Source: Escherichia coli
GTDB lineage: Bacteria > Pseudomonadota > Gammaproteobacteria > Enterobacterales > Enterobacteriaceae
Length of the DNA: 1,092 nt
Direction: 5' to 3' (one strand)
Assembly (NCBI RefSeq): GCF_003334405.1
Contig: NZ_QOWM01000048.1
Positions within the stretch are counted from its first letter, which is position 1. Every line of letters starts with the position of its first letter. Below, piece by piece: positions 1 through 1,092 of the stretch. The notes beneath the pieces were generated by a model, which made no database searches, had not been told where the DNA came from, and worked only from the letters and a program-made list of their open reading frames with translations. A program made the position numbers and the translations under genes.

Positions 1-60
1 GATTTAATCTGTATCAGGCTGAAAATCTTCTCTCATCCGCCAAAACAGCTTCGGCGTTGT
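1..60 (-). other. 23S-5S internal transcribed spacer (proximal part), containing the 3' trailer of pre-23S rRNA that is removed during maturation
   Basis: Reverse complement of 1..60 is ACAACGCCGAAGCTGTTTTGGCGGATGAGAGAAGATTTTCAGCCTGATACAGATTAAATC, which matches my recollection of the spacer that follows the 23S 3' end in E. coli-type rrn operons and precedes the 5S gene. It sits directly after the mature 23S 3' terminus at position 61. Confidence 0.82.

Positions 61-1092
<1,032 letters not shown>

Follow-up and report, generated by a model that had tools for sequence, protein, structure and literature searches.

The window, by which we mean the whole stretch of 1,092 nucleotides that was analysed, is best explained as the distal part of an rrn operon of Escherichia coli (or Shigella) lying on the reverse strand, in which the end of the 23S rRNA gene is followed by the spacer leading toward the 5S rRNA gene, with a processing stem and the route to 9S RNA. 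We put the probability of this reading at about 97%. Read on the minus strand, window 61..1092 holds the final 1032 nt of a bacterial 23S rRNA, and both the 5S gene and the 23S leader lie outside the window, which stops 32 nt before the 5S and about 1.9 kb from the 23S 5' end. The 23S-5S spacer found here is a standard, long-characterised and already known feature of the E. coli rrn operons; the RNase III stem, the 9S RNA and the trimming by RNase E and RNase T have been textbook knowledge for E. coli since about 1980.

The Rfam model LSU_rRNA_bacteria (RF02541) matched the minus strand at 61..1092 with 1125.6 bits, over positions 1899-2925 of a model 2925 positions long. The match was cut at its 5' side only, by the window edge, and the final model position (2925) fell on window position 61, indicating that the mature 23S 3' end lies there. 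The letters at 61..71 (aaggttaagcc) read GGCTTAACCTT as the reverse complement, and the annotated 23S end coincided with position 61 in five of five exact-match E. coli loci inspected. The end of the model and these five annotated ends thus agree with the first-pass annotation, which had mapped the mature 23S 3' end to position 61, and the spacer starts directly after …GGCUUAACCUU. With 100% identity to annotated E. coli 23S rRNA, window 61..1092 corresponds to nt 1873-2904, approximately, in E. coli numbering. Close to the end of the gene, window 63..70 (minus strand, nt 2895-2902) carries the 3' strand of helix 1, GCUUAACC, which was invariant across 15 distinct sequences and which in the co-fold described below paired with the mature 23S 5' end, GGUUAAGC.

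The full window was 100% identical to many E. coli chromosomes. A match to it was present in all of the 5426 complete E. coli genomes (5426/5426), at a median of 7 places per genome, and a 75-nt query across the 23S/spacer boundary gave E = 1e-30 in E. coli genomes, well outside what chance would produce. The seven curated MG1655 rrn operons served as a further comparison. Read on the minus strand, window 1..60 was identical at 60 of 60 positions to the first 60 spacer nucleotides of rrnB, rrnG and rrnD, and so represents +1..+60 of a 92-nt transcribed spacer of the rrnB/rrnG/rrnD type. No difference from the window was seen in the K-12 spacer of this type (the rrlB-rrfB region, 92 nt), which abuts an identical 23S 3' end. 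The other four operons showed one or two differences from the window: the rrnC spacer, 92 nt long like those of rrnB, rrnG and rrnD, departs at +13, where it has A and the window C; the 93-nt rrnH spacer has one additional T at +27; and the 93-nt spacers of rrnA and rrnE combine G at +13 with the additional T at +27. In rrnH, rrnA, rrnE and rrnC the architecture, the proximal stem and the distal hairpin before the 5S are nevertheless those of the rrnB type. Measured between curated mature ends, the spacer was 92 nt in rrnB, rrnG, rrnD and rrnC and 93 nt in rrnH, rrnA and rrnE, in agreement with the earlier description of an E. coli-type spacer of roughly 90 nt.

Within the 23S part, rrlB and rrlG differ from the window at positions 754 and 762, where the window is identical to rrlC. 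At these two positions (23S nt about 2211 and 2203) the window matches rrlC and is unlike rrlB, rrlG, rrlD, rrlH, rrlA and rrlE, and at positions 163, 166, 169 and 171 (23S nt about 2794-2802) it matches rrlB, rrlG and rrlD and is unlike rrlH, rrlC, rrlA and rrlE. These intragenomic 23S polymorphisms (window 163-171, 754 and 762) look like ordinary operon-to-operon heterogeneity. Assignment of the window to one operon was dropped, since across different strains exact matches were found in four operon contexts (upstream of kgtP, of mobB, of tRNA-Asp, and of tRNA-Thr with a second 5S gene).

The sequence beyond the window edge was read from loci identical to the window. In one such copy, upstream of kgtP in the O157:H7 strain TR01 (L001), the window occupies locus positions 3001-4092 and the 23S ends at 4032. 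The nucleotides past the window edge (4093-4124) are AGAACGCAGAAGCGGTCTGATAAAACAGAATT, followed by the mature 5S start TGCCTGGCGGC. The Rfam 5S_rRNA model matched 4127-4242 with 92.8 bits. In the MG1655 coordinates the start given by Rfam and PGAP comes 2 nt later than that of the curated mature 5S (120 nt), so the mature 5S 5' end of L001 is placed at 4125; between it and the window edge at 4092 there are 32 nt. Four further exact-match loci showed equal spacing (23S end at locus position 1332, 5S annotated from 1427), so that the 5S followed at a 92-nt spacing in 5/5 exact-match places inspected, and in all seven MG1655 operons it lay 92-93 nt after the 23S. A probe of 272 nt comprising 23S end, spacer and 5S was covered to at least 80% in 5422 of the 5426 genomes, and both 23S and 5S were annotated beneath each of the 29 full-length probe matches sampled (29/29). 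These results support the view that a 5S gene lies on the minus strand with its mature start, as judged from the identical loci, 32 nt beyond window position 1; the first reading of the window had predicted it about 30 nt beyond that position on the same strand, and L001 and the four further loci bear this out.

The pairing of the spacer with the 23S leader was analyzed by co-folding 60 nt of leader and the 23S 5' end of L001 with the 23S 3' end and the 60-nt trailer, the leader being taken from loci identical to the window. The co-fold had a predicted energy of -56 kcal/mol, and helix 1 continued unbroken into a leader-trailer duplex, with leader positions -1 and -2 paired to U2903 and U2904. 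The proximal stem comprises trailer +1..+19 (window 42..60, minus strand) paired with leader -3..-20; its irregularities are a bulged G at +6 (window 55) and C at +13 (window 48) opposite U at -14. All proximal-stem pairs were retained in a consensus fold of 15 distinct sequences, and the stem was also predicted in the seven MG1655 operons, despite an internal hairpin in which their leaders vary. A distal extension of the stem was predicted between trailer +21..+32 (GGCGGAUGAGAG; window 29..40, minus strand) and leader -32..-47 (…UCUCUCA…UUCGC). It co-folded in 7/7 MG1655 operons and in most of ten loci of other Enterobacteriaceae genera, in which the leader-trailer fold was likewise predicted, but was absent from the RNAalifold consensus. 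The earlier proposal that the first spacer nucleotides next to position 61 pair with the 23S 5' leader is therefore upheld by the co-fold with the leader of an identical locus, and the predicted pairing reaches further than proposed, to about 32 nt.

Energy tests on the flanks alone gave weak to moderate values (co-fold z = -1.3, with an alternative intramolecular fold; duplexfold z = -3.0), and an in-register pairing test was used in their place. In this test 17 of 18 leader positions paired, one single-base bulge being allowed, a result equalled by a single one of 200,000 shuffled trailers. Compensatory changes were seen at 0 of 31 stem pairs in the 15 distinct sequences, which are close relatives with nearly all pairs invariant. 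The few changes within the stem were one-sided and kept or created a pair (+13 C to A or G; G-U to A-U). The one lineage that would be informative is Mangrovibacter, whose trailer is changed at +9 and +22, in contigs that end inside the 23S and so lack the leader. Position +13 (window 48) was the sole variable proximal-stem position among the K-12 operons: opposite U at -14, C forms a U·C mismatch, A a U-A pair and G a U-G pair, and the window carries C. Judged with the 23S 5' leader of identical loci, the trailer is complementary to that leader in the register set by helix 1. The 23S RNase III stem of the 30S pre-rRNA (Bram, Young & Steitz 1980, as cited in PMC7261194 and PMC6582327) is likewise a duplex of leader and trailer that prolongs helix 1.

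[quoted passage not shown] Exonucleases, among them RNase II and RNase PH, then trim the 3' tail of the pre-23S and RNase T completes it; at the 5' end the remaining 3 nt are taken off by RNase AM (PMC7261194). Cut positions were placed on the window by counting from position 61, with both positions and enzymes taken from the literature. The trailer, from +1 to about +32, would pair with the leader upstream of the 23S and, prolonging helix 1, would give a long duplex, in which RNase III would cut at -7 and +8, the 3' cut falling between window positions 53 and 52. Trailer +1..+8 (ACAACGCC; window 53..60, minus strand) would accordingly be the part that stays on the pre-23S after RNase III cleavage and is later trimmed, this 8-nt tail (window 60..53) being removed by 3' exonucleases with RNase T acting last. 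The co-fold predicted the pairs -8:+7 and -9:+8, so that the published cuts would be staggered by two base pairs in the predicted duplex, which would fit the 2-nt 3' overhang left by RNase III. In this model the -7 and +8 cuts of the known stem fall inside the duplex predicted for the window, and no difference between the two was found.

The downstream product of this cleavage would be the 9S RNA. In E. coli this RNA is released by RNase III and cut by RNase E to p5S with a 5' AUU (PMC9848016, PMC7261194). With the RNase III cut placed between window 53 and 52, window 52..1 (minus strand), from the cut to the window edge, would be the first 52 nt of the 9S leader and thus, judging from position and literature, the 5' part of the 9S pre-5S RNA, and RNase E would cut 3 nt upstream of the 5S. 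These 52 nt are trailer +9..+60 of a 92-nt spacer that in the identical loci ends …CAGAAUU directly before the UGCC of the 5S, and AUU is the last three spacer nucleotides in L001. When L001 4041-4250 was folded, a modest hairpin was predicted within window 48..9, together with a second hairpin, AUCAGAACGCAGAAGCGGUCUGAU, located before the RNase E site; its 5' foot, the first three bases (AUC), is window 3..1, and most of it is beyond the window edge. Compared with the 9S pre-5S RNA known as the classical RNase E substrate, the window holds only the first 52 leader nucleotides, the RNase E site and the 5S being outside.

Spacers of the family were surveyed by scanning the genome collection with the last 29 nt of the 23S, which gave 104 rrn 3' ends from Enterobacteriaceae. 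Among these the first 22 or so trailer nucleotides were nearly invariant, and a 5S start motif followed the 23S in 102 of the 104. The motif was absent from the 330 nt searched at two ends whose spacers resemble the long class (L058 and L059), which may mean that the search stopped short or that these copies have no 5S. Spacer lengths in Enterobacteriaceae fell into classes of about 62-68, 88-104 and 186-200 nt, so that the prediction of a 5S about 30 nt from the window edge is specific to the E. coli-type spacer, which the window sequence matches exactly. Spacers of 186-200 nt were seen in many rrn copies of Salmonella, Klebsiella, Citrobacter, Kosakonia, Trabulsiella and Mangrovibacter. Within the long spacers sits an insert, about 100 nt in length, whose invariant core, GGAGCATAC and GTATGTGACTGA separated by 4-5 nt, forms a hairpin; the insert is missing from E. 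coli and from the window and was noted in loci L012, L019, L025, L040, L049-L057, L073, L083-L090 and L097-L108. The insert matched no Rfam family, and the variable arms flanking its core might co-vary. A Thr_leader match at L056 3411-3498 (minus strand), with 21.6 bits against a gathering score of 55 and E = 0.1, overlaps the 5S 3' end and is most likely due to chance.

Variation of the spacer also occurs within E. coli and bears on the distance to the 5S. If the source operon had a variant distal spacer of 97-100 nt, the 5S would start about 37-40 nt beyond position 1 and not 32. Such spacers exist: a copy in E. coli E69 (L033) has exactly the first 60 spacer nucleotides of the window, but its distal part, of 37 nt, is different and brings the spacer to 97 nt, and the copy upstream of murB in E. 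coli 21319 (L113) has a spacer of 100 nt. The distal hairpin of both differs from that of the E. coli 92-nt type. However, the E69 copy is only 99.36% identical to the whole window, the 21319 copy is already divergent within the first 60 nt, and all five fully identical places inspected show a spacing of 92 nt; together these points make a variant distal spacer very unlikely here. Even less probable is an origin in a truncated, rearranged, plasmid-borne or engineered rrn fragment without a following 5S. Such an origin could draw on the 16 of 37,987 matching places that are on records labelled plasmid, and on the presence of part of the spacer in cloning vectors, but for each plasmid place there are more than 2000 chromosomal ones. 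The rrnB fragment of expression vectors (spacer from +12, 5S and T1 terminator) begins with sequence identical to window 49..1 and lacks the 23S and trailer +1..+11, whereas the window has both, including 1032 nt of contiguous 23S, indicating a chromosomal-type sequence rather than a vector fragment; the vector piece itself, moreover, has a 5S directly after the spacer. Taken as a whole, an atypical rrn copy as the source, with another distal spacer or truncated before the 5S, is most improbable given the 1092-nt identity to standard E. coli, and, if true, it would be a minor structural variant of the rrn operon.

Copies of window 1-49 were also observed next to blaTEM on small ColE1-type plasmids such as pMQ (NZ_OP009360.1, L114) and on a 42-kb record labelled Stenotrophomonas. 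These plasmid copies are probably the common expression-vector cassette, and since that cassette carries the spacer, database matches to the spacer alone can be vector sequence. The last explanation considered was an independent element in window 1..66, on either strand, such as a small ORF, a promoter, a terminator or a described sRNA. Its one point of departure was a 23-codon GTG ORF at 4..75 (minus strand) in the mechanical ORF list, the only ORF touching window 1..120; this frame, which lies within the rRNA transcript and crosses from the end of the 23S to the spacer, gained no support. Promoter-like and terminator-like sites were absent from window 1..300, and on both strands of the window no Rfam family other than LSU was matched at E up to 1. 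An independent element is accordingly extremely improbable, and the distal end of an E. coli rrn operon is the reading that we retain for the window.

The value of this reading is one of annotation only. It sets the 23S 3' boundary at window position 61 and predicts a 5S gene just outside the window, and it identifies window 1..60 as transcribed spacer and not as an unexplained intergenic region.
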